Shown here one piece after another: positions 703 to 36,717 of a stretch of 64,000 nucleotides of DNA. The stretch lies in assembly GCF_056746865.1 (NCBI RefSeq), contig NZ_CM163382.1. One strand, written 5' to 3'. Below the pieces are notes generated by a model. That model saw only the letters and a program-made list of their open reading frames with translations. It was not told where the DNA came from and ran no database searches. The position numbers and the translations under genes are program-made. Position 1 is the first letter of the stretch. Each line of letters starts with the position of its first letter.

Positions 703-1295
703 TATTCATTCTCCTGAGAAAAATTCCGGGCCTGCGGCAATCCTTGCCAGCGCCTGGCGTGAGGATGTTCGAGGCCAAATTGATCCAGCACGCGGGCTAC
801 CACATGGTGGACAATGTCATCTACCGTTTCGGGATGGTTATAAAAGGCAGGCATCGGCGGCACCATCGCCACACCCATGCGCGAAAGTGCGAGCATATTT
901 TCGAGATGGATTGTGCTAAGCGGCATTTCACGCGGCACCAGCACCAGTTTGCGGCCTTCTTTGAGCACGACGTCCGCCGCGCGCCCTACGAGACCATCGG
1001 CGTAACCAGCGCGGATACCGGCGAGCGTTTTCATACTGCATGGAATAACGATCATGCCGTCGGTACGAAAGGAGCCGGAAGAGATAGTCGCAGCCTGATC
1101 CGCCGGGTTATGGCTGAAGTCTGCGAGGGCGGCAACATCGCGAGCGCTGTAAGGCGTTTCCAGTTCAATGGTGGTTTTCGCCCACTTCGACATCACCAGA
1201 TGAGTCTCGACATTCGGCATCTCCCGCAGCGCTTGCAGTAATGCCACCCCAAGAGGCGCACCGGTAGCCCCTGTCATCCCGACGATCAGTCTCAT
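702..1295 (-). CDS. UbiX/Pad1-like flavin prenyltransferase
   Basis: 197 aa ORF MRLIVGMTGATGAPLGVALLQAL..., canonical UbiX-family N-terminus and length. Confidence 0.85.
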   Translation of the reverse strand: MRLIVGMTGATGAPLGVALLQALREMPNVETHLVMSKWAKTTIELETPYSARDVAALADFSHNPADQAATISSGSFRTDGMIVIPCSMKTLAGIRAGYADGLVGRAADVVLKEGRKLVLVPREMPLSTIHLENMLALSRMGVAMVPPMPAFYNHPETVDDIVHHVVARVLDQFGLEHPHARRWQGLPQARNFSQENE

Positions 1296-1441
1296 TGTTT
1301 ATTCTCTTAATTGTTCGTATACGAACGTTATTATTAAAATACGCCTCTGTTTTCATCGCGGCAAGCACTGAAAAGTAACAACATCTTCTTCGTCACTGAA
1401 AAACCGCTATGATAGCGGCAGATAGTTTGCCCGGAGTTTAC

Positions 1442-1849
1442 ATGGCGTTACGAAATAAAGCGTTCCATCAGTTACGACAGCTTTTTCAGCAGCACACGGC
1501 TCGCTGGCAGCACGAGTTACCTGACCTCACCAAACCACAGTACGCGGTGATGCGCGCCATTGCTGATAAGCCTGGTATTGAACAGGTGGCACTGATAGAA
1601 GCAGCAGTCAGCACCAAAGCAACGCTGGCAGAAATGTTGGCAAGAATGGAAAATCGTGGCTTAGTCAGACGTGAACATGACGCCGCTGACAAGCGGCGAC
1701 GCTTTGTCTGGCTGACTGCCGAAGGAGAAAAGGTACTTGCTGCGGCGATACCGATTGGTGACAGTGTGGATGCGGAATTTTTGGGGCGTTTGAGTGGAGA
1801 AGAGCAGGAGCTGTTTATGCAGCTGGTGCGCAAGATGATGAGCAAATAG
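1442..1849 (+). CDS. MarR/SlyA-family transcriptional regulator
   Basis: ORF 1409..1849; probable start ATG 1442 after GGAG; winged-helix MarR-like sequence, divergent from the decarboxylase operon. Confidence 0.7.
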   Translation: MALRNKAFHQLRQLFQQHTARWQHELPDLTKPQYAVMRAIADKPGIEQVALIEAAVSTKATLAEMLARMENRGLVRREHDAADKRRRFVWLTAEGEKVLAAAIPIGDSVDAEFLGRLSGEEQELFMQLVRKMMSK

Positions 1850-1921
1850 GATGCTGATTGCCGGGTAGGACGCTGACGAGTCTTATCCAGGCGACAAAAC
1901 ACACCGACTTCCCAAACAAAA

Positions 1922-1956
1922 GAAAAAGGCCAGCCTCGCTTGAGACTGGCCTTTCT
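1922..1956. terminator. Bidirectional rho-independent terminator between the MarR-like gene and rpoS
   Basis: Inverted repeat AAAGGCCAG ... CTGGCCTTT flanked by A-run and T-run, between convergent gene ends. Confidence 0.5.
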
Positions 1957-1969
1957 GACAGATGCTTAC

Positions 1970-2962
1970 TTACTCGCGGAACAGCGCTTCGATATTCAGC
2001 CCCTGCGTTTGCAGGATTTCGCGCAAACGGCGCAGGCCTTCAACCTGAATCTGGCGAACACGTTCACGGGTGAGGCCAATTTCACGACCTACATCTTCCA
2101 GTGTTGCCGCTTCGTACCCCAGCAAACCGAATCGACGTGCCAGCACTTCACGCTGTTTGGCGTTCAGCTCGAACAGCCATTTGACGATGCTCTGCTTCAT
2201 ATCGTCATCTTGCGTGGTATCTTCCGGACCGTTCTCTTTTTCATCGGCCAGGATGTCCAGCAACGCTTTTTCGGAATCACCACCCAGCGGGGTGTCTACC
2301 GAGGTAATGCGCTCGTTAAGACGAAGCATACGGCTGACGTCATCAACTGGCTTATCCAGTTGCTCTGCGATCTCTTCCGCACTTGGTTCGTGGTCCAGTT
2401 TATGGGACAACTCGCGTGCGGTTCGCAGGTAAACGTTCAGCTCCTTTACGATGTGAATCGGCAAACGAATAGTACGGGTTTGGTTCATAATCGCCCGTTC
2501 GATCGTCTGGCGGATCCACCAGGTTGCGTATGTTGAGAAGCGGAAACCACGTTCCGGGTCAAACTTCTCTACCGCGCGGATCAGCCCCAGGTTGCCCTCT
2601 TCGATCAGGTCCAACAGCGCCAGACCACGATTGCCATAACGGCGGGCAATCTTCACGACCAGACGCAGGTTACTTTCAATCATCCGGCGACGTGAAGCGA
2701 CATCTCCACGCAGTGCGCGACGCGCGAAATAAACTTCTTCTTCGGCCGTTAACAGTGGCGAATAACCAATCTCACCAAGGTAAAGCTGAGTCGCGTCCAA
2801 CACACGCTGTGTGGCCCCTTGCGATAACAGCTCCTCTTCAGCCAAATCGTTATCACTGGGTTCCTCTTCAACTAAGGCTTTCTCGTCAAAAACCTCAACT
2901 CCGTTCTCATCAAATTCCGCGTCTTCATTTAAATCATGAACTTTCAGCGTATTCTGACTCAT
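1970..2962 (-). CDS. rpoS: RNA polymerase sigma factor RpoS (sigma-38), full length
   Basis: 330 aa [37 protein letters not shown]..., sigma-70 family regions 2-4 recognisable. Confidence 0.97.
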
Positions 2963-3024
2963 AAGGTGGCTCCTACCCGTGATCCCTTGACGGAACTAGC
3001 AAGCAAAAGCCTGGTTCCGCCGAA

Positions 3025-4164
3025 TTATCGCTGCGGTAAATAACGCAGCGGGTTTACGGATTTCCCCTTGTAACGAATTTCAAAATGCAAGCGTGTTGAA
3101 CTGGTTCCGGTGCTACCCATGGTTGCTATTTTTTGCCCCGCCTTCACTTCTTGTTGTTCCCGGACCAGCATTGTGTCGTTATGGGCGTAGGCACTCAGGT
3201 AATCATCATTATGTTTGATGATAATCAGATTACCGTAGCCGCGCAGCGCGTTACCGGCATAAACAACGCGGCCATCTGCGGTCGCGATAATTGCCTGTCC
3301 TTTGCTGCCTGCGATATCAATCCCCTTGTTGCCCCCCTCAGAAGCGCCAAAGGTTTCGATCACTTTGCCCTCAGTCGGCCAGCGCCAGGTGGAGATAGGC
3401 GTACTGGTTGATGTACTGCTGACAGTCGGCTCGGTTGTGCTTGCTGTTGGTACCGTTACAGGCGCTGTGACCGTGGTCGCAGTTGGCTTGTTGTTCGGCA
3501 ACATTTTGTTAGCACTCTGTTCACCCGAAGACTCAGAATACGTAATTGTCGGTTGCGACGCAACAGCAACGGTGGAATTTTGTGCAGGCTTGATCACAAC
3601 TCCTTGCTCTGCTGCGTCGGCCTGGGTAATGGCATTTCCGCCAGTGATTGGCGTACCGGAAGCATTACCCACCTGTAAGGTCTGACCGACGTTCAGCGCG
3701 TATGGTGCCTGAATATTGTTGCGCTGAGCAAGGTCACGGAAATCGTTGCCAGTAATCCAGGCGATATAGAAAAGTGTGTCGCCTTTTTTCACGGTATAGG
3801 TACTGCCGCTATAACTGCCTTTCGGAATGTTCCCATACTGACGGTTATAGACGATGCGTCCGTTTTCCATCTGTACCGGCTGCTGAGCTACTGGCTGTAC
3901 TGGCTGGATTTGCGGTTGTTGAGTAGCCTGAATTTGTGGCTGCTGTACCGGCTGAATTTGCGGTTGCTGCGCTGTAGACGTCGTTCCCATTTTCGGCGGT
4001 GGCGTAATCAACATACCAGAATTGGTATTTGCAGGCGCATTGCCATTAACGGAGCTTACCGGTGCCGGTGGATTTGAAGTGTCAGAACAGCCTGCCAGCC
4101 ATAGCGAAACCAGTGACAAAGCCGCAATGCGGCGAACGGTGAATTTTGGGCTTCCCGCGCTCAT
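3025..4164 (-). CDS. nlpD: Murein hydrolase activator lipoprotein NlpD (LysM + M23 domain)
   Basis: 379 aa, lipoprotein signal LAGCS, QPQIQ proline/glutamine repeats, C-terminal M23 peptidase-like region. Confidence 0.95.
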
Positions 4165-4303
4165 TTATCCCCCAGGAAAAATTGGTTAATAACCAGTGAC
4201 ATAATTACCGTGCAAGGCACCATACTGAACACTGGAAAAGATGTTCACGATACGCTGACCTGCGGCAAAATAACCAGGAAAAATCCAGGTATTTCCTCAC
4301 GTT

Positions 4304-5665
<1,362 letters not shown>

Positions 5666-5685
<20 letters not shown>

Positions 5686-6715
5686 AATCACCTGTTGTGT
5701 TGATAAGTTCCCTGACAACGCTGGTTGCAAAACTACCCGCCGGAAGCCAGAAACGGATTTCTACGGTGACGTCATCCCACCAGTTCCAGCTTAATTGTTG
5801 CGGATACAGCAGCATCGCTCTGCGCGCGGCTTCAACTTTTTCGCGCACCAGTAAGGCTTGTAATTCAGTTTCTGCGGCGACAGCTGCTTGTTCGAATGCC
5901 AACGCTTCACGCTGAGTTCCCCATTCGCCACTGCCCGGCAATGCGGCGGTTATCATCAGCTCTTTATCGTTGACGCGACGCTGTAATTCCGCCAGTTCTT
6001 CGGTGGTTGCGACAAACCAGCTACCACGTCCGGCTAATTGTAGCGCATCGCCGTCAACAACTTGATTAACGTCTGCTTTTTTGAGGCGCTCAGCAACAAT
6101 CTGATTAAACAACGCACTGCGGGCTGCCGACAACCAAAAACTCCGTTTATTGCGATCGCGCACCGGAGTATTGGTTTGCGCCCAGCGCAGCGCGCCCTGC
6201 AAGTTGCTACCGCCAATCCCGAAACGTTGGGCACCGAAGTAGTTCGGTACACCTTTTACGCAAATATCGATCAGACGTTGTTCAACGTCATCGCGATTGC
6301 TCACTTCGCGCAGAACCAGGGTAAAGGCGTTACCTTTCAGCGCCCCTAAACGCAGCTTGCGCTTGTGCCGCACATACTCCAGCACCTGGCAGCCTTCCAG
6401 TTGAAAGGCGCTCAGATCGGGCATTTCCTTGCCCGGCACGCGAGCACATAACCACTGTTCCGTTACAGCATGTTTGTCTTTTTGCCCAGCGAAGCTGACT
6501 TCACGGGCATGAATTTTCAGGAATTTCGCCAGTGCATCCGCCACAAAACGGGTATTGCAGCCGTTTTTGAGGATTCTAACCAGAATATGCTCACCTTCAC
6601 CATCAGGCTCAAAGCCCAAATCTTCCACCACCACAAAGTCTTCCGGATTGGCTTTCAGCAACCCGGTGCCTTGCGGTTTACCGTGGAGGTAAGTGAGATT
6701 ATCAAACTCAATCAT
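5666..6715 (-). CDS. truD: tRNA pseudouridine(13) synthase TruD
   Basis: 349 aa [32 protein letters not shown]... Confidence 0.93.
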
Positions 6716-7191
6716 TTTGTTGCCTTAATGAGTAGCGCCACCGCTTCACAGGCAATCCCTTCCCCACGTCCGGTAAATCCAAGTTTTTCCGTAGTAGTGG
6801 CTTTCACGTTAACATCATCCATATGGCAGCCGAGATCTTCGGCAATAAACACGCGCATTTGTGGTATGTGCGGCAACATCTTCGGTGCCTGAGCGATGAT
6901 AGTGACATCGACGTTGCCCAGCGTATAACCCTTCGCCTGAATACGACGCCAGGCTTCGCGTAGCAGCTCGCGGCTGTCGGCACCTTTAAATGCCGGATCG
7001 GTATCCGGGAACAGCTTGCCGATATCCCCCAGCGCCGCCGCGCCAAGCAATGCATCGGTCAACGCATGGAGCGCCACGTCGCCATCAGAATGCGCCAGCA
7101 ATCCTTTTTCGTAAGGAATGCGTACGCCACCAATGATAATTGGGCCTTCACCGCCAAAGGCGTGTACGTCAAAACCGTGTCCAATTCGCAT
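6712..7191 (-). CDS. ispF: 2-C-methyl-D-erythritol 2,4-cyclodiphosphate synthase
   Basis: 159 aa [42 protein letters not shown]... Confidence 0.95.
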
Positions 7192-7901
7192 TATGTATTC
7201 TCCTGATGGATGGTTCGGGTGAGGTAAAACTCGGCCAGTGCCAAATCTTCCGGGCGCGTGACTTTAATGTTATCCGCGCGGCCTTCGACCAACTGCGGAT
7301 GAAATCCGCAATATTCCAGCGCCGAGGCTTCGTCGGTAATGGTAGCGCCTTCATTTAGAGCGCGCGTCAGGCAGTCATGTAACAGCTCACGAGGGAAAAA
7401 TTGCGGCGTCAGCGCGTGCCATAAGCCGTTGCGATCAACGGTATGAGCAATAGCATTTTTGCCCGGTTCGGCACGTTTCATCGTATCGCGCACTGGTGCG
7501 GCGAGGATCCCCCCCGTGCGGCTGGTTTCGCTCAACGTCAACAATCGCGCGAGGTCATCCTGATGCAGACAAGGACGAGCGGCGTCATGCACCAATACCC
7601 ACTGCGCGTCGCCAGCGGCTTTCAGACCTGCCAGCACCGAATCGGCACGCTCATCACCGCCATCTACAACGGTGATTTGCGGATGATTCGCCAGAGGAAG
7701 TTGTGCAAAACGGCTATCGCCAGGACTTATGGCAATGACGACACGTTTCACCCGGGGATGCGCCAGCAGCGCATGCACCGAGTGTTCAAGAATGGTTTGA
7801 TTACCGATTGAGAGATATTGCTTAGGACATTCCGTTTGCATTCGACGGCCAAATCCGGCCGCCGGAACCACGGCGCAAACATCCAAATGAGTGGTTGCCA
7901 T
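7191..7901 (-). CDS. ispD: 2-C-methyl-D-erythritol 4-phosphate cytidylyltransferase
   Basis: 236 aa ORF with [20 protein letters not shown] motif; stop overlaps ispF start. Confidence 0.95.
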
Positions 7902-7919
7902 GTTAATTCCCGGGCTGAT

Positions 7920-8231
7920 TTATCGATTGTTTTGCCCCGCAGACTGTGCGCGCTTCGACGCGTCAGGCACCAGACGATAAAAAGTTTCGCCCGGCCTGGT
8001 CATGCTGAGTTCATTACGCGCACGCTCTTCGAGCGCCTCCTGGCCGCCATTGAGATCGTCAATTTCGGCAAAAAGTTGATCGTTTCGCGCTTTAAGTTTC
8101 GCGTTTGTAGCTTGCTGTGCCGCCACATCATCATTGACGCGGGTATAGTCATGTATACCGTTCTTACCGAACCACAGCGAATACTGTAGCCAGACCAGAA
8201 TAGCCAGCAACAGCAGCGTTAGTTTACCCAT
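7920..8231 (-). CDS. ftsB: Cell division protein FtsB
   Basis: 103 aa, N-terminal TM segment plus coiled coil, [25 protein letters not shown]... Confidence 0.93.
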
Positions 8232-8424
8232 CCTGCCCCCTGAAAAACGGCATCATCATCCCATGCATCCGAAGACGACTCTACATCCTCTGTTGGGGAT
8301 ACCGCGACAACGCGGGCAAATGTACCACATTTGTCCATTGTTACGTATACCCAGGGCGTGCAGAACATAATCTCATTATTAGTTACGGTTTGAATTATGA
8401 ACAGAGGAGACAAGAAAGTACAAA

Positions 8425-8748
8425 TTAGCCCAGTAGCCACATAAACAGTGCGCCAAACATAATGCCTACTGTCATCAGGGTGAAAACAATACTGTAGCGT
8501 AGCTTTCCGTCCATCAATGAATGCAGCGCAATCCCCACCACTACTGCGACAGGCATCAGTGCCAGAAAGAAAGGCCAGGTGTAGATAAAGAAGAACAGCG
8601 TGTTAGAGCCATAAATCAACATCGGCATCGCCAGCGCAAATAACCAGGAGATAAAACCGACCACGGCACCAGGCAGTGACCATGTGGTTTCTTCATCCTC
8701 AGTAAGGCTGTCGTTATTTGTTAGTGTAATGTTATGGCTATTACGCAT
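8425..8748 (-). CDS. ygbE: Inner membrane protein YgbE (DUF3561)
   Basis: 107 aa, multiple hydrophobic helices, conserved position between ftsB and cysC. Confidence 0.8.
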   Translation of the reverse strand: MRNSHNITLTNNDSLTEDEETTWSLPGAVVGFISWLFALAMPMLIYGSNTLFFFIYTWPFFLALMPVAVVVGIALHSLMDGKLRYSIVFTLMTVGIMFGALFMWLLG

Positions 8749-8797
8749 ATTTGATCCTGTTACTTTGACGAACCGGGCATGGAAACCCGGTGGTGTC

Positions 8798-9403
8798 TCA
8801 GGATCTGATAATATCGTTCTGTCTCAACAGATCTAATAATTGCTGTACCAAATTTGTTACTAATTGTTCACCATTGAGATGAATTTCTGCCGATTCAGGC
8901 GCTTCGTAAACGGAATCTATTCCCGTAAAGTTGCGCAGTTCACCGGCACGCGCTTTCTTATATAAGCCTTTTGGATCGCGGGCTTCGCAAATCGCCAGCG
9001 GCGTATCGACAAATACTTCGATAAAGCGCCCTTCTCCTACGCGTTCACGAACCATCTGGCGTTCGGCGCGGTGTGGCGAGATGAATGCGGTCAGCACCAC
9101 CAGTCCGGCTTCAACCATCAAATTCGCCACTTCACCGACGCGACGGATATTCTCTTTACGATCGGCATCGCTAAAACCGAGATCGCTGCATAATCCGTGG
9201 CGAACATTGTCGCCATCCAGCAGATACGTACTGACGCCGAGTTTATGTAACGCCTCCTCCAGCGCCCCGGCGACCGTTGATTTACCGGACCCGGAGAGGC
9301 CGGTAAACCACAGCACTACACCACGATGACCGTGGTGTAGCTCGCGTTGTTGTACAGTGACTGGATGGCTATGCCAGACGACGTTTTCGTCATGCAGCGC
9401 CAT
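8798..9403 (-). CDS. cysC: Adenylyl-sulfate kinase
   Basis: 201 aa, P-loop GLSGSGKST. Confidence 0.95.
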
Positions 9404-10830
9404 TATTTATCCCCCAGCAAATCGCGTGCGCCCCAGTGCGGAAAGTGGCGACGAACCAGGGCATTCAATTCCAGTTCAAATGCACTGAATTCAGATGGCG
9501 CAGCAGTTGCCTGGCTAACTGGCTCGTGCACCATACCGGCACCCACGGTCACATTGCTCAGGCGATCGATAAAAATCAGCCCACCGGTAACCGGATTTTG
9601 CTGATAACGATCTAACACCAGTGGCTCGTCAAAAGTGAGATCCACCAGGCCGATGCCGTTCAGCGGCAGGTTTTCAACTTCGCGTTGGGTAAGGTTATTA
9701 ATATCAACCTGATAACGAATACCATCAACACGAGCACGCGTCTTCTTACCGGCAATTTTGATGTCATAACTCTGGCCCGCGGAAAGCGGCTGTTCCGCCA
9801 TCCATACCACATCCACCGACGCGCTCTGCACAGCCGGTAACGCTTCGTCTGCCGCCAGCAGCAGATCGCCACGGCTGATGTCGATCTCATCCGTCAGCAC
9901 TAGGGTGATCGCTTCTCCGGCAAAGGCTTCTTCGCGATCGCCATCAAAAGTCACGATCCGCGCGACGTTTGATTCCACACCAGAGGGCAGCACTTTGACA
10001 CGTTGCCCGACTTCCACTCGACCGGATGCCAGCGTTCCGGCGTAGCCACGAAAATCGAGATTCGGGCGATTAACGTACTGCACCGGGAAGCGCATTGGCT
10101 GGGCATCCACCACTCGCTGGATCTCCACGGTTTCCAGCACTTCGAGCAGTGTCGGACCGCTGTACCACGGCATACTTTCACTTTGCGAAGCCACGTTGTC
10201 GCCTTCCAGTGCAGAGAGCGGCACAAAGCGGATATCCAGATTACCCGGCAGCTGCCCGGCAAACGTCAGATAATCTTCGCGAATACGGGTGAACGTCTCT
10301 TCACTGTAACCCACCAGATCCATTTTGTTGATCGCCACGACCAGATGTTTGATCCCCAACAGTGTGGAGATAAAACTGTGACGACGGGTTTGATCGAGCA
10401 CGCCTTTACGGGCATCGATCAGTAAGATCGCCAGTTCACATGTCGATGCGCCAGTCGCCATATTGCGAGTGTACTGCTCGTGCCCTGGGGTATCGGCGAT
10501 AATAAATTTACGCTTCTCGGTAGAGAAATAACGGTAAGCCACGTCAATGGTGATGCCCTGTTCGCGCTCAGCTTGCAGGCCGTCCACCAGCAGAGCCAGA
10601 TCCAGCTTTTCGCCCTGGGTGCCGTGACGCTTACTGTCGTTATGCAGCGATGAGAGCTGATCTTCGTAGATTTGGCGGGTATCGTGCAGCAGACGACCAA
10701 TCAGGGTACTTTTTCCGTCATCGACGCTACCACAAGTCAGAAAACGCAGCAGGCTTTTATGTTGTTGCGCAATCATCCAGGCTTCGACGCCGCCTTCATT
10801 GGCGATTTGTTGTGCAAGTGCGGTGTTCAT
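9403..10830 (-). CDS. cysN: Sulfate adenylyltransferase subunit 1 (GTPase)
   Basis: 475 aa, GTPase motifs [18 protein letters not shown]. Confidence 0.95.
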
Positions 10831-10831
10831 C

Positions 10832-11740
10832 TTAAAAATACCCCTGACGTTTTTTCAACTCCATGGATCCCGCCTGGTCGCGGTCAATCACGCGACCCTG
10901 ACGTTCACTGGTGGTGGAAACCAGCATCTCTTCGATGATTTCCGGCAGTGTTTGTGCATTTGACTCCACCGCACCGGTCAGCGGCCAGCAGCCCAGCGTA
11001 CGGAAACGCACCATCCGTTTTTTAATCACTTCTCCCGGTTGCAGGTCGATACGGTTGTCATCAATCATCATCAACATACCGTCGCGTTCCAGAACCGGTC
11101 GTTCCGCAGCGAGATACAGTGGAACAATGTCAATATTTTCCAGCCAGATGTATTGCCAGATATCCTGCTCGGTCCAGTTAGAGAGCGGGAAGACGCGGAT
11201 GCTTTCGCCTTTGTTAATTTGCCCGTTGTAGTTGTGCCACAGCTCCGGGCGCTGATTTTTCGGATCCCAGCGATGGAAGCGGTCACGGAAAGAGTAGATT
11301 CGCTCTTTAGCGCGGGATTTCTCTTCGTCGCGGCGCGCACCACCGAAGGCGGCATCAAAACCGTATTTGTTCAGCGCCTGTTTCAGGCCTTCAGTTTTCA
11401 TAATATCGGTATGTTTCGCGCTGCCATGAACGAATGGATTAATCCCCATCGCTACGCCTTCCGGGTTTTTATGCACCAGCAGCTCGCAGCCGTAGGCTTT
11501 AGCCGTACGATCGCGGAACTCATACATCTCGCGGAATTTCCAGCCGGTATCGACATGCAGCAACGGGAAAGGCAGCGTACCTGGATAAAACGCCTTGCGC
11601 GCCAGATGCAGCATGACGCTGGAATCTTTACCGATAGAGTAGAGCATCACCGGATTTGAGAATTCTGCCGCCACCTCGCGAATAATGTGGATGCTTTCCG
11701 CCTCCAGTTGCCGCAGGTGAGTAAGTCGTTTTTGATCCAT
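10832..11740 (-). CDS. cysD: Sulfate adenylyltransferase subunit 2
   Basis: 302 aa, PAPS-reductase-like fold, [23 protein letters not shown]... Confidence 0.95.
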
Positions 11741-11991
11741 AACCGTTCCTTTGCAATACCGCTATTTTCTTGCCATCAGATGTTTCGACTATAGGGAGCG
11801 CAGGAGAACGAATGAAATTACCAATTAGAATGAGTAGTTCCTTAACGGAATAACGATTTGGCAAAGCTAATATCAAAAAGTGCTTAAGGCACCGGATTTC
11901 GGGCGTTTAGGAAGATTTGAAATTGTTTTAGCGCATCGGCAGTTTCATACTATGGCGGTAAAAAAATTTGCATGGTATTTAAGGACTCACT

Positions 11992-13029
11992 ATGTTTTCC
12001 GCATTGCGCCACCGTACCGCTGCCCTGGCGCTCGGCGTATGCTTTATTCTCCCCGTACACGCCTCGTCATCTAAACCTGGCGATTTTGCTAATACTCAGG
12101 CACGACATATTGCTACTTTCTTTCCGGGACGCATGACCGGAACTCCAGCAGAAATGTTATCTGCCGATTATATTCGCCAACAGTTTCAGCAAATGGGTTA
12201 TCGCAGTGATATTCGGACATTTAATAGTCGGTATATTTATACCGCCCGCGATAATCGCAAGAGCTGGCATAACGTGACGGGAAGTACGGTGATTGCCGCT
12301 CATGAAGGCAAAGCGCCGCAGCAGATCATCATTATGGCGCATCTGGATACTTACGCCCCGCTGAGCGATGCTGACGCCGATGCCAATCTCGGCGGGCTGA
12401 CGTTACAAGGAATGGATGATAACGCCGCAGGTTTAGGTGTCATGCTGGAATTGGCAGAACGCCTGAAAAATACGCCTACCGAGTATGGTATTCGATTTGT
12501 GGCGACCAGTGGTGAAGAGGAAGGGAAATTAGGTGCTGAGAATTTACTCAAGCGGATGAGTGACACCGAAAAGAAAAATACGCTGCTGGTGATTAATCTC
12601 GATAACTTAATTGTTGGCGATAAATTGTATTTCAACAGCGGCGTAAAAACCCCTGAAGCAGTAAGGAAATTAACGCGCGACAGGGCGCTGGCAATTGCGC
12701 GTAGTCATGGAATTGCCGCAACGACCAATCCGGGTTTGAATAAAAATTATCCGAAGGGTACTGGCTGTTGTAATGACGCCGAAGTTTTCGACAAAGCCGG
12801 TATTGCCGTACTTTCGGTAGAAGCAACAAATTGGAATCTTGGGAATAAGGATGGTTATCAGCAACGCGCAAAAACAGCTGCATTCCCTGCGGGAAATAGC
12901 TGGCATGACGTAAGACTGGATAATCAACAACATATTGATAAGGCACTTCCAGGAAGAATAGAACGTCGCTGCCGTGATGTTATGCGGATAATGCTACCGC
13001 TGGTGAAGGAGCTGGCGAAGGCGTCTTGA
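11992..13029 (+). CDS. iap: Alkaline phosphatase isozyme conversion aminopeptidase (M28 family)
   Basis: 345 aa with signal peptide; conserved neighbour of the type I-E CRISPR array. Confidence 0.9.
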   Translation: MFSALRHRTAALALGVCFILPVHASSSKPGDFANTQARHIATFFPGRMTGTPAEMLSADYIRQQFQQMGYRSDIRTFNSRYIYTARDNRKSWHNVTGSTVIAAHEGKAPQQIIIMAHLDTYAPLSDADADANLGGLTLQGMDDNAAGLGVMLELAERLKNTPTEYGIRFVATSGEEEGKLGAENLLKRMSDTEKKNTLLVINLDNLIVGDKLYFNSGVKTPEAVRKLTRDRALAIARSHGIAATTNPGLNKNYPKGTGCCNDAEVFDKAGIAVLSVEATNWNLGNKDGYQQRAKTAAFPAGNSWHDVRLDNQQHIDKALPGRIERRCRDVMRIMLPLVKELAKAS

Positions 13030-13110
13030 TGGGTTTGAAAATAGGAGCTGGGAGTTCTACCGCAGGGGCGGGGAACTCCAAGTGATGTCCATCATCGCAT
13101 CCAGTGCGTC

Positions 13111-14176
13111 CGGTTTATCCCCGCTGACGCGGGGAACACACATGAATGTCGGTTCAGACCGTGTTTTTACCCGGTTTATCCCCGCTGGCGCGGGGAACAC
13201 TGCCTCGGCGGCGGCTCTGCGCAACCGCGAAACGGTTTATCCCCGCTGGCGCGGGGAACACGTTAAACCGTGATGATCAGCAAAAGCTATTTCCGGTTTA
13301 TCTCCGCTGACGCGGGGAACACGTCAATAGGCGGCGTCCCGTAGCCGTCCCCTTCGGTTTATCCCCGCTGGCGCGGGGAACACTTGAAATGGTCCAGCAC
13401 TGCGACCGTCGGCCCCGGTTTATCCCCGCTGGCGCGGGGAACACGCTGGTGGCGCGGGCAAACGGAACAATCCCGCCGGTTTATCCCCGCTGGCGCGGGG
13501 AACACGCTAACCTATAACACGGAAAATCACACGCTAACGGTTTATCCCCGCTGGCGCGGGGAACACGGCCATTCCCCCAAGCAGACGCAGGAAGTTAACG
13601 GTTTATCCCCGCTGGCGCGGGGAACACCTGGATTTCACCTCAGCAAATGCTGGATGTGGCGGTTTATCCCCGCTGGCGCGGGGAACACCACCCCTGATAT
13701 TTTTGCCACCGTGGTTACTCCGGTTTATCCCCGCTGGCGCGGGGAACACAGAAATCAAACTCAGCGTGCAAATGGGGTAGCCGGTTTATCCCCGCTGGCG
13801 CGGGGAACACTTGCGTTATTTCTATCTGGTGAGTCGCGGCACCGGTTTATCCCCGCTGGCGCGGGGAACACGTATTTTTTATCGTCGCATGAGTCGCGGT
13901 AACCGGTTTATCCCCGCTGGCGCGGGGAACACTTCTGCCGCGCCAGCAAACGTATCGGCGGTCACGGTTTATCCCCGCTGGCGCGGGGAACACCCCAGGC
14001 CAAGCATTATATCCTGTGCGTCGTTCGGTTTATCCCCGCTGGCGCGGGGAACACACCAAGAAGCTGACGAATCAGCCCGACACGCACGGTTTATCCCCGC
14101 TGGCGCGGGGAACACCCAGTTTCATATGAGCCGCCGCGCTGGATCATCGGTTTATCCCCGCTGGCGCGGGGAACAC
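13111..14176 (-). CRISPR. Type I-E CRISPR array: 18 repeats of 29 bp (CGGTTTATCCCCGCTGGCGCGGGGAACAC on + strand), 17 spacers of 32 bp; leader at high-coordinate end
   Basis: Regular 61-bp periodicity read directly. Repeats at 13111 and 13294 carry variants (GCTGACGCG; 13294 also ATCTCC). A degenerate terminal repeat lies at about 13050-13078. Confidence 0.97.
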
Positions 14177-14272
14177 ACTAAGCATACATAACTGTTTTTA
14201 AACAAATTTATTCCGCATCAACAATCTACCAACTAAATTAAAACATTTCCTTATTTTTAAAGAACAGATAAC
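14177..14272 (-). promoter_or_regulatory. CRISPR leader (AT-rich) between array and cas2
   Basis: AT-rich ~95 bp immediately adjacent to the last perfect repeat and downstream of cas2. Confidence 0.7.
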
Positions 14273-15482
<1,210 letters not shown>

Positions 15483-15486
<4 letters not shown>

Positions 15487-16133
15487 GCCTCTGCTCCGGG
15501 TTTGATCAGCATCAGACCACAGCCGAACGCGCGGCTTTTGCCATACCCCTGGCTCAGACGTTGCAGAAATAACCCGGGATCGGTGACCGTAAGCATCCCC
15601 GTATAATCCACGCTACTGAACTGGATCAGTTGCCGGGAGTTTTCCCGCCACAGTTGCTGTTGTCGGTAGGCATCAACCGAGGTATCCAGCAGTGTAAAAC
15701 CGCTTCTCTCCCCCTGCGCTGCCAGCCAGTCCAGCGCCGCCTGTTGTTGATGCAACCAGACATCACTTCCTTCCGCCTGCCCCCTCACCTGCCGTTTCGC
15801 CTCCATCAGCAGATCGTGGCGCTTGCCCGCTTTACAGATTGTTGGATTCGCCCGCAGGTTGAAACAAAGTTGTTGTCCGGTACGCAGCTCGGGCACAAAT
15901 GACCGGCATTCGATGGTGAACGTTTCACTTTCTGCCGGGCGTTCCTGCGACAGTACAAAAAAGCGAAACGCGCCCTGGAGTTCTTCCCGACGATAAAGAA
16001 ATTGCCTTTCTTTGCCGCCAGGGAAGAGATCCCACAGCCACTGATGCATCACATATTCCCCGCGATCCACCAGATGCAGCAACTGCGCAGGCGAAAGCTG
16101 GCCGGTATGTAAGGTTATTCTTGAGAGGTACAT
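15483..16133 (-). CDS. cas6e: Cas6e/CasE crRNA endoribonuclease (divergent I-E variant)
   Basis: Start at MYLSRITLHTGQ (ATG 16131-16133, GGAGG upstream); C-terminal ...GYGKSRAFGCGLMLIKP glycine-rich motif typical of Cas6e. Confidence 0.88.
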
Positions 16134-16810
16134 GGTTCCTCCTTGCTGAGCCACGGCCCCTGATTGACGGTGCGTTCCCCAAACAACCATTGCTGACGAT
16201 TTAAAGGAACATCCCGGCGGCGCAATATTTTGCTCGCGACCAGGCCGTCGTGCTCCCCTTCCCACCAGCATTCATCCTGAAGTTTCGGGAGTGCGATTTT
16301 CAGGTCGTGGAAATGCTCCTGATACTGGTGATATGCGTTACGTAAAACATCAGACGCGTTGCCTTCAAGCAGTAACGGCGCAAGTGGTAATGCCAGCGGA
16401 TGACTTTTTCGCCCCAGATAAAGCGGAAAAACTGGATGGCGTAAACCGCCCTGCAACTGTTCGAGGCTGTAAGGCGCATCGGCTGTTGTTGCCACCGCCA
16501 CCATCCACCAGGCGTCGGTGTAGTAGTCGCGCCGGGAGATAATCGCGCTCAGAAGATCAGGGTCGCTCAACTCTTCGCGACGGCTGAAATAACGCGCTTT
16601 ACGCACCTCTTTTGGCATCTGGATTGTGTGATAATCCCGTGCCCAGCGCGGGTTACGGCTGGCGCAAACCACCAGTGAATAGTGGCGGTTAAACACGTTT
16701 AATCGTTCGGTATCATCACGCCGAATCCCTACCCCGGCAGCCAGCAGCCCCAGCAATGCTGAGCGCGAAGGCAGTTCATGGGTATGACGCACTTCGCCCG
16801 CTCCAAACAA
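16115..16810 (-). pseudogene. cas5: cas5e/casD remnant lacking about 20-25 N-terminal codons; fused to island att core
   Basis: Cas5e-like body (...LPSRSALLGLLAAGVGIRRDD..., ...LYLGRKSHPLALPL...) but the frame opens with only a TTG 3 codons after a stop, and the first codons overlap the 15-bp att repeat. Confidence 0.8.
16792..16806. repeat. att core direct repeat (left copy), CTTCGCCCGCTCCAA
   Basis: Identical 15-mer recurs at 36704-36718; matches the acceptor-stem/CCA end of a tRNA. Confidence 0.6.
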
Positions 16811-16969
16811 ACATTTCTCAACGTCTACTGAAGTCCATCAAATCCACGAATATCAAGCCTTTCAGCCATTTTCATAGCTTATTAACGTCTACTCACAACT
16901 ACCAGAATCTACACACAGAAGTGTATAGTAATGCGTATAGGACAAAATTTATTTTTTGGAGCTATACAC

Positions 16970-18184
16970 ATGCTGCTTTCAGACCTTGCTATCAGGCGCG
17001 CGAAGCCGAAAGAAAAGGCTTATACACTCAATGACGGTAACGGGCTTTCGTTACTCATTGAGCCGAACGGCTCGAAAGGGTGGCGACTACGTTACAGATT
17101 TGCAGGAAAGCCCAAAATGTTGTCGTTGGGCGTGTACCCTGATGTGTCTCTGTCTGATGCCAGAGCGGCAAGGGATGAGGCTAAAAGGCTTCTTGCTGGT
17201 GGTATAAATCCAAGTGAGGCCAGAAAAGCTCAAAAGCGAGAACAGGCGAGCAAATTTGGCAATACTTTTGAGGGTATCGCTCGCGAATGGTATGAAAAGC
17301 GGATCGACAGGTGGTCATCGTCATACGCCGAGGAAATGATCGAGACGTTTGAAAAAGACGTTTTTCCGTACATTGGCGGCAGGCCGATCGCAGAAATTAA
17401 GCCAATGGAGTTGCTTGCGGTTCTCTCCCGTCTTAATGACCGTGGGGCGACCGAAAAATTGCGTAAGGTTCGCCAGCGATGCGGCGAGGTGTTCCGGTAC
17501 GCAATCATCACCGGACGCGCTGAATATAACCCCGCACCAGATCTGGCAAGCGCATTTGCTCCACACAAAAAAGAGCATTATGCCTATTTGAAGGCCGACG
17601 AACTGCCGGAATTTTTCCGCGTTCTTAATACGTACACCGGAAGCCAGATCGTCAAGCTGGGTATGCGATTATTGATTCTGACAGGGCTCCGGCCAGGGGA
17701 ATTACGACAGGCAGAATGGCAGGAGATCGATTTTGATAATCGTTTGTGGGAAGTGCCTAAAGAACGAATGAAGATGCGCCGTCCTCATTGTGTGCCGCTT
17801 TCAGAACAGGCGATCGCTATTCTGGAACAGTTAAAACACATGACGGGGCAGTATCAGTTTATTTTCCCTGGTCGAATCCAGCACAGTAAGCCGATGAGTG
17901 AAATGGCGATGAACGTGCTTATTCGTCGTATTGGCTATTCTGGGCGCGTTACTGGTCATGGGTTCCGGCACACGATGAGCACGATTTTACATGAGCAGGG
18001 CTATAACACCGCGTGGATAGAAACGCAGCTTGCACACGTTGATAAGAACTCAATTCGTGGCACGTACAATCATGCGCAATATCTGGACGGGCGGCGCGAG
18101 ATGCTCCAGTGGTACGCCGACTATATGGACTCACTGGAACAGGGCGGCAACGTGGTGCATGGCAAGTTCGGAAAATGTGGATGA
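16970..18184 (+). CDS. int: Tyrosine recombinase, P4-type integrase
   Basis: ORF 16931..18184; start taken at MLLSDLAIRRAKPKEKAYTLNDGNGLSLLIEPNGSKGWRLRY... (ATG 16970); C-terminal catalytic region with HGFRHT and Y. Confidence 0.93.
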   Translation: MLLSDLAIRRAKPKEKAYTLNDGNGLSLLIEPNGSKGWRLRYRFAGKPKMLSLGVYPDVSLSDARAARDEAKRLLAGGINPSEARKAQKREQASKFGNTFEGIAREWYEKRIDRWSSSYAEEMIETFEKDVFPYIGGRPIAEIKPMELLAVLSRLNDRGATEKLRKVRQRCGEVFRYAIITGRAEYNPAPDLASAFAPHKKEHYAYLKADELPEFFRVLNTYTGSQIVKLGMRLLILTGLRPGELRQAEWQEIDFDNRLWEVPKERMKMRRPHCVPLSEQAIAILEQLKHMTGQYQFIFPGRIQHSKPMSEMAMNVLIRRIGYSGRVTGHGFRHTMSTILHEQGYNTAWIETQLAHVDKNSIRGTYNHAQYLDGRREMLQWYADYMDSLEQGGNVVHGKFGKCG

Positions 18185-19610: not shown

Positions 19611-20435
19611 ATGAAACTGCGAAAAACGCCCGTACAGGGGCAGGGCTTTGTTCGGCCTGAAAACCAGAATCTGCAAAATTTCGGCGAAATTATCCCGGTT
19701 ATTTCCGGCGTTATTGGCGGGCGTGAAGCCGCTGTTGTTAGCGCAAAAGCGTTACACAAAGCGTTGGGCGTGGGAAAAGACTTCTCTACATGGATCACTG
19801 ATCGTATCTCTGAATATGACTTCACCATTGGGTACGATTACTCAGTCCATAAAACAATTTCCCCAAATTTGGGGAAAAGCCCGAATGGCGAGGCTTACAG
19901 CAAGATTAAGCACTCTGGCAGACCCGGTAAAGACTATCTGTTAAGTGTCGGAATGGCGAAAGAACTGGCAATGATCGAACGCACCGAACAGGGCCGCGCC
20001 GTTCGTCAGTACTTCATCAAATGCGAGGAGGAGCTACACAAGGTAGCGCCTGTACGTTCCGCAGCGTTACGCCGGGAACTGAAAGCCCGTATCACCGTAG
20101 CCAGCTACTTTAAGCCAATGTGTGCCGCGCTGGAGGCGTACCGGGCTGAACTGGGTAAAAACACGCTCCAGCACCACTACACCACGGAAGCCAATATGCT
20201 GGCGCGTATCGTGCTGGGTGGCATGAATGCAAAACAGTGGGCGCAGGCGAACGGCATCACAGGCGAACCACGCGACCACATGAGCACGCTGCAGCTTGAG
20301 CACCTTTCTTACCTTGAGCAGAGCAATATCACGCTGATTGAGTTAGGCCAGGACTACCACCAGCGGAAAGCTGAATTAATTCGTCTTTCGCAACGCTGGT
20401 TAGCCCGCCGCATGGAGGTGAGCAGCCATGCGTAA
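19611..20435 (+). CDS. Phage antirepressor (AntA/KilAC-type)
   Basis: 274 aa; sequence resembles prophage antirepressor proteins; part of int-alpA-ant module. Confidence 0.65.
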   Translation: MKLRKTPVQGQGFVRPENQNLQNFGEIIPVISGVIGGREAAVVSAKALHKALGVGKDFSTWITDRISEYDFTIGYDYSVHKTISPNLGKSPNGEAYSKIKHSGRPGKDYLLSVGMAKELAMIERTEQGRAVRQYFIKCEEELHKVAPVRSAALRRELKARITVASYFKPMCAALEAYRAELGKNTLQHHYTTEANMLARIVLGGMNAKQWAQANGITGEPRDHMSTLQLEHLSYLEQSNITLIELGQDYHQRKAELIRLSQRWLARRMEVSSHA

Positions 20436-22266: not shown

Positions 22267-22569
22267 ATGAAGAAGATTAAATTTACTGGCTTAAATGCCA
22301 GCGGACAGACTCACCCGAAAATCAGGATCGGGGATATTTTCCGGGATAAATATGGTGACAGCGTGGTTATTAATTCCGTGTATGAACGGCACATTACATA
22401 CCGCCGCGCAGGGTACGACTATGACTGTGTGATGCCCGTTCATCAGTTCCGGCGTGATTTTTCACTGGTATGTGCAGCACCACGCAGTAAGCCCACCAGT
22501 AAAGAGAAAGCACGGGCAAATATTCAGGTAATAAAGAACATGATTAACGCATTCAGGGGCAAGAAATGA
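22267..22569 (+). CDS. Hypothetical protein (100 aa)
   Basis: ORF overlapping primase start; tight spacing with neighbours. Confidence 0.45.
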   Translation: MKKIKFTGLNASGQTHPKIRIGDIFRDKYGDSVVINSVYERHITYRRAGYDYDCVMPVHQFRRDFSLVCAAPRSKPTSKEKARANIQVIKNMINAFRGKK

Positions 22570-24692
22570 AACGCGCACCGAATTTAAAGCACCAGCCGAA
22601 AGACAAAATGACGGAGGTGATTATCTTTGCGGGTAGTGATGCCTGGGCACATGCGAAAGAGTGGAGCGAATGGGCCGGAAAGCATATTGCGGCAGATGAT
22701 ACACATCCAGTTATTCTTGGACCGGAACAACTGGCGAGTCTGGCAGACACGCAAATCATCGACAAAGGGCGCTATTACGTGCGCGTTTATCGTGCTGGTG
22801 AAATATCAGAGCAGCACCTTACACAGATAGCGACACTGCTTGCAGTGGCGGGTGTGAAGGAGGCGCGTTGCTACCGCAGCTTTGTTGATCAGCAGCCGGA
22901 GGACTGGACACCGCGCATGGCTGGACTGAAGGATGATGCGGAACGCGGTAACAGTCTGGTGATCAACCTTCCGGCGAAGACAAATTTCACCGGAAATTAT
23001 GATGACGAATTAAAGCCTCGTGTTGAAAGTCGCGTCGATGGTGTTTTCTGGGTAACGCCCAAAGTGGACAAGCAGTCAGGCGAAATTATCCGGCCTGAGA
23101 CGTGGTTATGTTCTCCGCTTGAACTACTGGGAACAGGAACAATCGGCAAAGAGCATTACCGCGTGATGCGCTGGAAAAAACCAGCAAACCATGAGGTCAT
23201 TACAATGGCGGTCCCGTGCGGAGGCATTGGTGACCGTGACGGCTGGCGGTTGCTGAAAGACCACGGCCTTAACGTGACGACCAACGGCAAATACAGGGCT
23301 ATCTTGGCTGACTGGATGCAGTTAAGCGGAAACCATGAGGAATGGCAGTTAAGCACAACAACGGGGTGGCATTTTGGTGCGTACATCATGCCGGATGGTT
23401 CGATCATCGGTGAATCAGAGAAACCCATCCTGTTTACCGGAAAAACTGCCGCTGTTAATGGCTATTCCGTGGCGGGAACAGCGGAGGGCTGGCGCGATAC
23501 CGTGGCACGGCTGGCTGGTGGTAATCCGTCCATGATGCTGGGTGTGGCGGTATCGCTATCTGCACCATTAATCGGGCTGGTGGGTGCTGACGGCTTCGGG
23601 GTTCATCTTTTTGAGCAATCATCAGCAGGTAAAACCACCACACAGAACATTGCATCAAGTTTATGGGGAGAGCCGGACGCGCAACGGCTGACCTGGTACG
23701 GAACGGCGTTAGGTATCGCCAACGAGGCCGAAGCACATAATGACGGGCTGTTACCCCTGGATGAAATAGGCCAGGCCGGAAACGCACGGGAGGTGTCCAC
23801 GTCAGCCTATACGCTGTTTAACGGTTCCGGGAAATTACAGGGGGCGAAGGACGGCGGCAACAGGGAGATAAAACACTGGCGTACGGTGGCAATCAGCACC
23901 GGAGAAATGGACGTTGAAACATTCCTCAAAACGGAAGGGATAAAAATTAAAGCGGGACAGCTTGTCCGTCTGCTTAACGTACCGATGGAAAAGGCCTCGC
24001 AGTTTCACGAATACAGCACCGGAAAGGCGCACGCAGACGCGTTAAAAGATGCCTGGACAGAAAATCACGGGGCGGCAGGTCGTGAGTGGGTTAAATGGCT
24101 GGCAGGCCACCAGCAGGAGGCAAAGGACGCGGTAAGGGCATGTCGCGAGCGGTGGCGCAACCTGATACCGGAGAGCTACGGCGAGCAGGTTCACCGTGTG
24201 GGGGAAAGATTCGCCGTACTGGAGGCCGCGCTTGTGCTTTCCGGTCATGTTACAGGCTGGGATGTTCAGGCGTGCCGTGATGCAGTTCAGCATAACTTTA
24301 ATGCCTGGGTGAAGGAATTCGGCACGGGCAACAGGGAATTTAAACAGATGGTTGAACAGGCTGAGGCGTTTTTGTCGTCGTTCGGGTTCAGTCGATACCT
24401 TCCCTATCCAAACAGCGACGAGCGTGATTTACCGATTAAAGACCTTGCCGGATACAGAAAGGGGAGTATCAGAAACGAAGATGACGAGTTCCGTTTTTAC
24501 ACGTTCCCGCATGTGTTTGAGGGTGAGATAGCACAGGGATTTAATCCGTCTCACTTTGCCCGCGCGTTGAGTGCAGCCGGAATGCTGGAAGCGGGAGGCG
24601 ACCGCCGTTACAAGAAAAAGGCGCTCGGCAGGATTGGCGGGAAGCAACATATTTTTTACGTGCTGATGTTCCAGCCTGAAGCAGAAGATTAA
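22566..24692 (+). CDS. Satellite/prophage replication protein, DUF927-type primase-helicase-like, Walker A present
   Basis: 708 aa; Walker A-like FEQSSAGKTT; immediately followed by iterons. Confidence 0.75.
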   Translation: MKRAPNLKHQPKDKMTEVIIFAGSDAWAHAKEWSEWAGKHIAADDTHPVILGPEQLASLADTQIIDKGRYYVRVYRAGEISEQHLTQIATLLAVAGVKEARCYRSFVDQQPEDWTPRMAGLKDDAERGNSLVINLPAKTNFTGNYDDELKPRVESRVDGVFWVTPKVDKQSGEIIRPETWLCSPLELLGTGTIGKEHYRVMRWKKPANHEVITMAVPCGGIGDRDGWRLLKDHGLNVTTNGKYRAILADWMQLSGNHEEWQLSTTTGWHFGAYIMPDGSIIGESEKPILFTGKTAAVNGYSVAGTAEGWRDTVARLAGGNPSMMLGVAVSLSAPLIGLVGADGFGVHLFEQSSAGKTTTQNIASSLWGEPDAQRLTWYGTALGIANEAEAHNDGLLPLDEIGQAGNAREVSTSAYTLFNGSGKLQGAKDGGNREIKHWRTVAISTGEMDVETFLKTEGIKIKAGQLVRLLNVPMEKASQFHEYSTGKAHADALKDAWTENHGAAGREWVKWLAGHQQEAKDAVRACRERWRNLIPESYGEQVHRVGERFAVLEAALVLSGHVTGWDVQACRDAVQHNFNAWVKEFGTGNREFKQMVEQAEAFLSSFGFSRYLPYPNSDERDLPIKDLAGYRKGSIRNEDDEFRFYTFPHVFEGEIAQGFNPSHFARALSAAGMLEAGGDRRYKKKALGRIGGKQHIFYVLMFQPEAED

Positions 24693-25850: not shown

Positions 25851-27059
25851 ATGAAACGACTACAAGCTTTCAAATTCCAGTTAAGACCAAATGGAAAACA
25901 GGAGCGTGAAATGAGGCGCTTCGCGGGCGCATGTCGTTTCGTTTTCAATCGTGCTCTGGCGCTTCAGAATGAGAATCATGAGGCCGGGAACAAATATATT
26001 TCTTATGCAAAGATGACTTCCTGGCTGGTTGAATGGAAAAATGCTACTGAAACGCAATGGCTTAAAGATTCTCCCTCACAGCCATTGCAGCAGTCACTGA
26101 AAGACCTTGAGCGAGCCTACAAAAATTTCTTTCAGAAGCGTGCCGCTTTTCCCCGATTCAAAAAGCGGGGACAGCATGATGCATTCCGCTATCCGCAGGG
26201 TGTTAAGCTCGATCAGGAAAACAGCCGTATTTTTCTGCCGAAACTGGGCTGGATGCGCTACCGGAACAGCCGTCAGGTCACGGGTGTTGTGAAAAATGTC
26301 ACTGTCAGCCAGTCCTGCGGTAAGTGGTACATCAGTATTCAGACAGAAAGTGAAGTATCAACTCCGGTTCACCCTTCAGCATTAATGGTCGGGCTGGATG
26401 CTGGCGTGGCTAAACTCGCCACGCTGTCAGATGGCACGGTCTTTGAGCCTGTAAACAGTTTTCATAAAAACCAGAAGAAGCTGGCGAGACTTCAGCGCCA
26501 GTTAAGCCGCAAGGTTAAATTCAGCAACAACTGGCAGAAGCAGAAACGCAAAATACAGCGACTGCATTCCCGTATCGCAAATATCCGCAGGGACTACCTT
26601 CACAAAGTCACAACGACCATCAGCAAAAACCACGCAATGATAGTCATTGAGGATTTGAAGGTCAGCAACATGTCAAAGTCAGCCTCGGGTACGGTCAGCC
26701 AGCCGGGGCGCAATGTCCGGGCAAAATCAGGTTTAAACCGTTCGATACTGGATCAGGGCTGGTATGAAATGCGCCGTCAGCTTGAGTACAAGCAGCTCTG
26801 GTGTGGCGGTCAGGTGCTTGCTGTTCCGCCAGCGTACACAAGCCAGCGTTGCGCGTGCTGTGGTCATACAGCGAAAGAAAATCGCCTGTCACAAAGTCAA
26901 TTCAGATGCCAGGTATGTGGATATACAGCGAACGCCGATGTAAACGGCGCTCGTAACATTTTAGCGGCGGGGCACGCCGTTCTTGCCTGTGGAGGGATGG
27001 TGCAGTCAGGCCGCCCGTTGAAGCAGGAACCCACCGAAATGATTCAGGCGACAGCCTGA
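25851..27059 (+). CDS. tnpB: TnpB (OrfB) RNA-guided nuclease-like protein
   Basis: 402 aa; [17 protein letters not shown]...; C-terminal CxxC...CxxC zinc finger ([37 protein letters not shown]). Confidence 0.9.
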
Positions 27060-36699: not shown

Positions 36700-36717
36700 T
36701 TCCCTTCGCCCGCTCCA
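36700..36717. repeat. tRNA 3'-end remnant / right att repeat (TTCCCTTCGCCCGCTCCA)
   Basis: 18 nt consistent with T-arm/acceptor stem/CCA of tRNA-Gly (glyU-like) as I recall it; contains the 15-bp repeat shared with 16792-16806. No complete tRNA in the window. Confidence 0.55.

Follow-up and report, generated by a model that had tools for sequence, protein, structure and literature searches.

The CRISPR array beside iap in the window (the whole stretch of DNA analysed, 64,000 nucleotides) is read here as an iap-side E. coli type I-E array of the CRISPR-A/leader-A/cas-EO kind, which appears to have lost adaptation through a stop codon in cas1e and is likely to be a relic; the sequence word common to its neighbouring spacers S5 and S6 would be coincidental. 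The probability of this reading is put at roughly 93%. Both the kind of array and its state have already been described in E. coli, and the array itself is ordinary. The main value of the analysis is a negative result: this is a textbook array whose details fit the published pattern, and that pattern also covers the ATG/CAT PAM, spacers against P1-like and other temperate phages, and deletion-only turnover. The locus would also be a clear case from nature of one cas1 nonsense mutation freezing an array, with sister genomes that show only recombinational loss or duplication afterwards.

Array anatomy and the leader-distal end

The canonical repeats begin at 13111 and recur with a period of exactly 61 nt up to 14148, the last repeat ending at 14176 (Table 1). 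The consensus repeat, CGGTTTATCCCCGCTGGCGCGGGGAACAC, is found exactly in 16 of the 18 canonical copies. It is a partially palindromic 29-mer that fits the E. coli type I-E repeat CGGTTTATCCCCGCTGGCGCGGGGAACWC, and the spacers are all 32 nt long. The repeat matched none of the Rfam CRISPR direct-repeat families, either at the gathering threshold or at E ≤ 1; this null result is uninformative on membership of the E. coli array family. Spacers are numbered from S1 (14116-14147), which adjoins the leader, to S18 (13079-13110) at the leader-distal end. The count of 17 spacers in the original prediction holds for those between canonical repeats, but the anchor spacer S18 brings the total to 18.

Table 1. 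Positions of the array, its sourced spacers, the cas genes and the island junction in the window
Feature	Position	Strand	Remarks
iap	11992-13029		left of array
CRISPR array including degenerate repeat	13050-14176		E. coli CRISPR1 (CRISPR2.1), type I-E
Degenerate terminal (leader-distal) repeat	13050-13078	-	in phase; 19/29 positions as in consensus
Anchor spacer S18, oldest	13079-13110	-	conserved across E. coli
Canonical array	13111-14176	-	18 repeats of 29 nt, 17 spacers of 32 nt, period 61
Variant repeat 1 (G17A, hairpin loop)	13111-13139	-	repeat 1 from leader-distal end
Spacer S17	13140-13171	-	32/32 to P1/P7/SJ46 phage-plasmids, upf94.2; 5′ flank CTG
Variant repeat 4 (C10T plus G17A)	13294-13322	-	repeat 4 from leader-distal end
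Spacer S13	13384-13415	-	29/32 to DUF2213 head gene, STEC384 prophage; PAM ATG
Spacer S12	13445-13476	-	31-32/32 to P1 darB (anti-restriction gene); PAM ATG
Spacer S9	13628-13659	-	32/32 to portal/head-tail connector gene, pLF82/Cyrano-like phage-plasmids (SSU5/pLF82-like); PAM ATG
Spacer S7	13750-13781	-	32/32 to P2-like baseplate J gene (P2-like prophage); PAM ATG
Spacer S6	13811-13842	-	32/32 to DUF2612 gene, myovirus-like STEC384 prophage; PAM ATG
Spacer S5	13872-13903	-	30/32 to C-terminal end of lambdoid prophage tail-fibre gene; PAM ATG (inferred)
AT-rich leader, leader-A type	14177-14272	-	75/96 identical to K-12 CRISPR1 leader
cas2e, intact	14273-14566	-	NCBIfam TIGR01873, 131.6 bits; PGAP on identical DNA
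cas1e pseudogene	14563-15486	-	TAA at 14887-14889, codon 200
cas6e, intact	15483-16133	-	NCBIfam TIGR01907, 290.9 bits; PGAP on identical DNA
cas5e without first 21 codons	16115-16798	-	ST69 identity stops at 16798; NCBIfam match from profile position 21
Island junction	16792-16805	+	7-nt core CTTCGCC, then CGCTCCA
cas5e candidate att site			GACGCACTTCGCCGGGGGC
Tyrosine integrase	16931-18184		after junction, start of 19.9-kb island

The array lies between iap and cas2e, with the AT-rich leader on the cas2 side. Since the leader and the minus-strand cas2e are on the right, the left end is the old end, and with the cas genes also on the minus strand the crRNAs are read from that strand. The variant and degenerate repeats are indeed leader-distal, as had been predicted. 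A sigma-70 consensus and terminator scan of the leader (14177-14272) yielded nothing, and no promoter-like site was seen.

The consensus repeat is predicted to form a 7-bp hairpin of -15.2 kcal/mol. The predicted energy is unchanged by G17A, while C10T removes one stem pair and weakens it from -15.2 to -8.3 kcal/mol. The hairpin weakened in this way is the would-be 3′ handle of the S14 crRNA.

In the proposed scheme, the array would be transcribed from the leader at 14177-14272 along the minus strand, and Cas6e would cut the repeat hairpins, leaving crRNAs that consist of a 5′ handle of 8 nt, the 32-nt spacer and a 3′ hairpin of 21 nt. Cas1-Cas2 would formerly have added spacers at the leader end, taken from 5′-ATG protospacers (CAT on the window plus strand), with the last G of the PAM becoming the final base of the repeat. 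A stop at Tyr200 would remove two of the three Cas1 catalytic residues and so end acquisition. The array would thereafter change by repeat-repeat recombination alone, internal units being lost or duplicated, and the degenerate repeat, the anchor and the A17 variants would be old inherited leader-distal states.

Comparison with other genomes bears on the history of the old end. Over positions 500-16798 the window agrees base for base (100%) with the chromosome of E. coli O15:H18 strain ST69, and in that identical DNA PGAP annotates iap, the CRISPR, cas2e, cas1e ('internal stop'), cas6e and cas5e. Across the 2301 nt of the array and its flanks, no fewer than 30 complete E. coli genomes show 100% identity, and 128 records show at least 99%. 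It had been suggested that the repeat variants might turn out to be sequencing errors. This explanation, extended to assembly errors and to the cas1 stop codon, is refuted to the point of being extremely improbable: the same bases are found in those 30 or more independently sequenced complete genomes, the variants, repeat 4 among them, are kept in the sister strains 10035776-3 (L009) and S1-ESP-03-A (L010), A17 is also found in K-12 and WCHEC005784, and an internal stop in cas1 is annotated in four other genomes. The identity across genomes shows that the repeat variants and the cas1 lesion are inherited.

E. coli K-12 has a homologous degenerate repeat at iap, and its anchor spacer is two SNPs off S18. 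In its first canonical repeat, position 17 is likewise A and the last five bases are AACAC, unlike the younger K-12 repeats, which finish with AACTC. The anchor spacer is also present in ETEC1747 and WCHEC005784, and the degenerate terminal repeat and the species-conserved anchor have homologues in all three strains. In WCHEC005784 the first repeat carries A17 and a G17A repeat directly precedes S14, a spacer that occurs in many lineages. On these comparisons, the old-end variants are ancient inherited states kept together with their spacers rather than products of recent decay. The leader-distal location given with the idea of decay away from the leader is correct; the refinement is that K-12 shares those states. 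It has been reported that the terminal repeat is almost always degenerate in E. coli (Touchon and Rocha, 2010; PMC2886076), and the same work describes, for E. coli, conserved repeat variants, old spacers found species-wide, a slow turnover that involves deletions, and cas genes that are often pseudogenes.

The K-12 CRISPR1 (CRISPR2.1) array has the same position between iap and cas2, the same 61-nt period, a homologous leader, a degenerate repeat and an anchor. The 29-nt repeat is also shared apart from position 28, and in both arrays variant repeats are concentrated leader-distally. The two differ in that the repeats end in AACAC in the window and AACTC in K-12, the PAM is ATG in the window and AAG in K-12, and the K-12 array shares no window spacer, the anchor aside. 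The Cas1 sequences are 84% identical, the window having the nonsense pseudogene. The array agrees with the O157:H7-type CRISPR-A/leader-A/cas-EO systems (PMC3737337) in its AACAC repeats, 32-nt spacers and CAT motif (found in six of seven protospacers here). As an array the one described here is no different from these; the differences are that cas1e is inactivated in the lineage and cas5e is truncated in this genome.

Spacer sources and the word common to S5 and S6

The search for spacer sources covered all spacers and took in 50,697 phage records, 72,556 plasmids and 5,426 complete E. coli genomes. The original prediction had proposed such a BLAST as a check, and it yielded phage sources for seven of the 17 non-anchor spacers (Table 1). 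The protospacers of S13 and S6 are in the same STEC384 prophage, 13 kb apart. The S13 mismatches are at positions 3, 6 and 12 of the window-plus-strand sequence, i.e. at the PAM-distal end. In the phage collection the one further match was that of S15 to Anabaena/Nostoc phages at 90% (E about 0.9), which was set down to chance.

The PAM is ATG for six of the seven sourced spacers (S13, S12, S9, S7, S6 and S5), and G is at position -1 in all seven protospacers. For S5 the PAM comes from two spacers in other arrays that overlap it but are displaced by 6 nt. Isolate F1267 has one of them in its CRISPR2 array and 2014C-3097 has the other in its CRISPR1 array; the donor flank that they reveal is CAT. 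Exact 32-mer searches of IMG/VR with S6 and S5 gave no match, and a 32/32 donor of S5 was not found in the phage, plasmid and E. coli genome sets searched. The CAT motif (ATG in crRNA sense) and canonical repeats ending in AACAC are both features of the CRISPR-A/leader-A/cas-EO group. In leader-A arrays of E. coli the CAT motif has been found in 34 of 55 protospacers (Diez-Villasenor et al., 2013; PMC3737337), and the same authors give CTT as the protospacer motif of K-12, as opposed to CAT for arrays with A-type repeats and leader.

Self-targeting was raised as a further possibility, in particular of the island at 16.8-36.7 kb. No self-target was detected in the 64-kb window, island included: the best ungapped matches outside the array are 19-22/32, which is at chance level, and a blastn-short run on the window gave matches of at most 15 nt. 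In the listed sister chromosomes with an identical array, the 13 spacers other than S17, S12, S9 and S7 match the array alone.

The adjacent spacers S6 (13811-13842) and S5 (13872-13903) both contain GAGTCGCGG. The shared word that had been pointed out is real, although it is longer than the 9 nt given: in full it is a 10-mer, TGAGTCGCGG, with a one-base offset between S6 and S5. Whether it reflects acquisition from related targets, that is, homologous phage sequences or a repeated motif of one invader, is a separate matter. In favour of such an origin, the word is at nearly the same PAM-proximal position in the two neighbours, 12 of the first 14 bases agree if one indel is allowed, and both protospacers are in phage tail or baseplate module genes. 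In addition, an adjacent same-strand pair with a common word of at least 10 nt arose in only one of 400 shuffles (0.25%). Pairs of any kind are far easier to obtain by chance: 42% of the 400 shuffles gave some pair with at least 9 nt in common, and 11% gave one with at least 10 nt. The array itself provides a second and unrelated 10-mer, GAGCCGCCGC, common to the non-adjacent spacers S16 and S1 and on opposite strands.

The protospacers themselves speak more directly against a common origin. That of S6 is in a DUF2612 gene and that of S5 at the tail-fibre C-terminus of another prophage type, and the shared word reads VSRG in the former and RDS, on the opposite coding strand, in the latter. Outside the word, the two spacers show no relationship over their other 18 bases, where about 6-7 positions match. 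No sequence like S5 is present in the STEC384 prophage at up to 8 mismatches, and its downstream tail genes have no protein similarity to the tail-fibre C-terminus that bears S5. A single donor phage for S5 and S6 was rejected on the latter two grounds. Priming by S6 on the S5 protospacer was also considered and set aside, as S6 would pair there at no more than about 17-18 of its 32 positions, in a register with a different PAM. With protospacers in unrelated genes and on opposite coding strands, acquisition from related targets is unsupported and very unlikely, and the word common to S5 and S6 is most likely a coincidence.

Probable loss of adaptation and the state of the locus

Among the type I-E cas genes present, cas2e and cas6e are intact, cas1e has a nonsense codon and cas5e is truncated. 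Relative to the intact ETEC1747 allele, cas1e has one nonsense change (TAT to TAA, codon 200) and one missense change. The stop aligns with Tyr200 of K-12 Cas1, and NCBIfam splits the Cas1e match into profile positions 3-195 and 198-268. The catalytic residues of K-12 Cas1 are E141, H208 and D221. The stop lies upstream of H208 and D221, and an intact Cas1 integrase with all three residues is not encoded. The predicted break in cas1 is thus confirmed as a single nonsense codon on the minus strand.

The status of cas1 was read base by base in four sister genomes (ST69, 10035776-3, S1-ESP-03-A and CE0007a), and all four have the same cas1 pseudogene as the window. The ST69 array is that of the window. 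Strain 10035776-3 has the same array, but with S14 duplicated and two further spacers located between S12 and S11, S1-ESP-03-A has the array without S7 and S6, and CE0007a has only S2 and S1 in common, of 11 spacers queried. S1 adjoins the leader in all four sisters, as well as in the other partial arrays listed. The leader-proximal spacer is therefore constant, and the differences between sister arrays are internal losses or duplication only. Variation confined in this way fits an array without adaptation. This comparison with related strains supports the prediction that the array is frozen, and it probably can no longer gain spacers owing to the cas1 stop. No relative was found that combines these spacers with an intact cas1.

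A frozen array might still be a working immune memory. If Cascade/Cas3 interference persisted and adaptation alone had been lost, matching phages would be kept out. ST69 and similar sisters do have cas3, casA, casB, cas7e, cas5e and cas6e annotated as intact. Moreover, just one of 60 chromosomes carrying the array has a second place that matches S17, S12, S9 or S7, while the rest of E. coli has many protospacers of these four (1475 places on chromosomes and 789 on plasmids). The 60 chromosomes are, however, essentially one clone, so that the protospacer depletion is not phylogenetically independent. In the window cas5e has lost 21 codons and its place in the operon, and the genes from cas7e to cas3 are nowhere in the 64 kb. 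It should also be pointed out that E. coli type I-E systems are silenced by H-NS under normal conditions. Persisting immunity is very improbable here. Judged on gene content, the array in this genome is most likely a non-functional relic, with cas5e truncated and the other Cascade and cas3 genes not adjacent, and we infer a loss of interference as well as of adaptation.

The cas5e junction

Identity with ST69 ends within cas5e, at the point where an integrase-bearing island begins (Table 1). The genes cas7e, cse2, cse1 and cas3, present in the sister ST69, are not in the 64-kb window, and neither is cysH. With cas5e cut short and cas7e to cas3 missing here, the system is degraded further than the original prediction had it. 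The cas5e remnant is severed from the Cascade operon promoter. The CTTCGCC core of the junction is common to cas5e and the 3′ end of a tRNA-Gly gene (glyU), ...CTTCGCCCGCTCCA. A second copy of the junction 14-mer at 36704-36717 ends the island, and is followed by the ETT2 locus, a normal glyU flank. Pfam and PADLOC gave no matches for the island open reading frames at 27693-35040.

Strain 118UI carries the same array, and there the two parts are about 136 kb apart and in opposite relative orientation. The arrangement in the window would therefore need an inversion, or else be an assembly chimera. The putative inversion of about 136 kb would have parted the stretch from cas7e to cas3 from cas6e, cas1, cas2 and the array.

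ETEC1747, from another lineage, has a related element of roughly 10 kb, cleanly inserted at the same position of cas5e with a duplicated CTTCGCC on both sides; beyond the element are cas5′, cas7e, casB, casA and a frameshifted cas3. ETEC1747 was rejected as a relative of the array, since the anchor spacer alone is in common, and it informs the cas5e junction but not the array history. This insertion bears the signature of site-specific integration at a putative secondary att site. Besides ETEC1747, no genome among the 5,426 complete ones covers the junction. A tentative suggestion, possible but on the doubtful side, is that the core in cas5e may be a secondary att site for glyU-specific tyrosine-integrase elements with P4- or satellite-like content, and that the inversion of about 136 kb may have split the locus here.

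A search of the literature found nothing specific on integrase insertion in cas5e, and only IS-mediated inactivation of cas genes has been reported (PMC10359306). Degraded type I-E loci of Escherichia, Shigella and Salmonella (PMC2886076) resemble the present one in having cas pseudogenes beside an apparently intact array, identical spacers among close relatives with deletion-type differences, and oldest spacers that are species-wide. They differ in that the second lesion here is a tyrosine-integrase island junction at a 7-bp core in cas5e, and not an IS or a deletion. If the cas5e site is used recurrently, site-specific integration there would offer mobile elements a natural means of shutting down Cascade. 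The cas5e/integrase junction is the least ordinary feature of this DNA and is perhaps worth a separate look as a case of CRISPR inactivation by a mobile element.

Phage targets of the spacers

At least three arrays in E. coli have independently captured the same short segment of a lambdoid tail-fibre gene. The captures are S5 of the window array, a spacer of the CRISPR2 array of isolate F1267 that is 6 nt out of register with S5, and, in the CRISPR1 array of 2014C-3097, a diverged copy of the 6-nt-shifted F1267 spacer. ATG PAMs, read on the crRNA-sense strand, fit all three.

S13 and S6, which are not adjacent in the array, have targets in the same myovirus-like prophage family, a DUF2213 head gene and a DUF2612 baseplate-region gene, respectively. 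The two target sites are on opposite strands with 13 kb between them (NZ_CP091029.1 2641723–2654867).

Places matching S17, S12, S9 or S7 are common across E. coli as a whole. A second such place was found in only one of 60 array-carrying chromosomes, that of FDAARGOS_1290, and this scarcity may reflect clonality and not immunity.

Spread of a repeat variant

In the WCHEC005784 array, G3A (CGATTTATCC...) is present in every leader-proximal repeat, and is a clear case of a first-repeat mutation copied to all later repeats. The window array differs in that its variants are isolated at the old end.

The cas5e junction and the island

The Cascade gene cas5e is broken in the window at the 7-bp core CTTCGCC and is fused there to a tyrosine-integrase island; tRNA-Gly (glyU) has an identical crossover core at its 3′ end. 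ETEC1747, of a different lineage, has a related element of ~10 kb in the identical cas5e site, with the core duplicated on both sides. The far end of the window island adjoins the glyU/ETT2 flank, which implies a ~136-kb inversion in the window relative to strain 118UI, which has the same array.

The island carries three consecutive large open reading frames, and searches of Pfam and PADLOC gave no match for any of them (27693–35040). They may represent uncharacterised cargo carried by a satellite-like element. Directly beyond the island's attR site, the ETT2 (E. coli type III secretion system 2) region takes up the remainder of the window and includes eivF and sctC.

Features of the window and loci compared from other E. 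coli genomes (L-numbers)
Feature	Position	Strand	Remark
S13	13384–13415		
S6	13811–13842		
S5	13872–13903		
cas5e/island junction	16792–16805		with core
Tyrosine integrase	16931–18184		island
AntA-domain protein	19611–20435		upstream of large ORFs
DUF927 protein	22566–24692		upstream of large ORFs
TnpB/IS605 OrfB gene	25851–27059		upstream of large ORFs
ORF, 843 aa	27693–30224	+	inside island
ORF, 686 aa	30224–32284	+	inside island
ORF, 925 aa	32263–35040	+	inside island
Island far-end site	36704–36717		
ETT2 region	36900–64000		
L002	9951–10051		junction
L015	41180–41400		junction
L012	6001–6032		S5 comparison
L013	1501–1532		S5 comparison
L014	201–232		S5 comparison
L016	1060–1440		WCHEC005784 array
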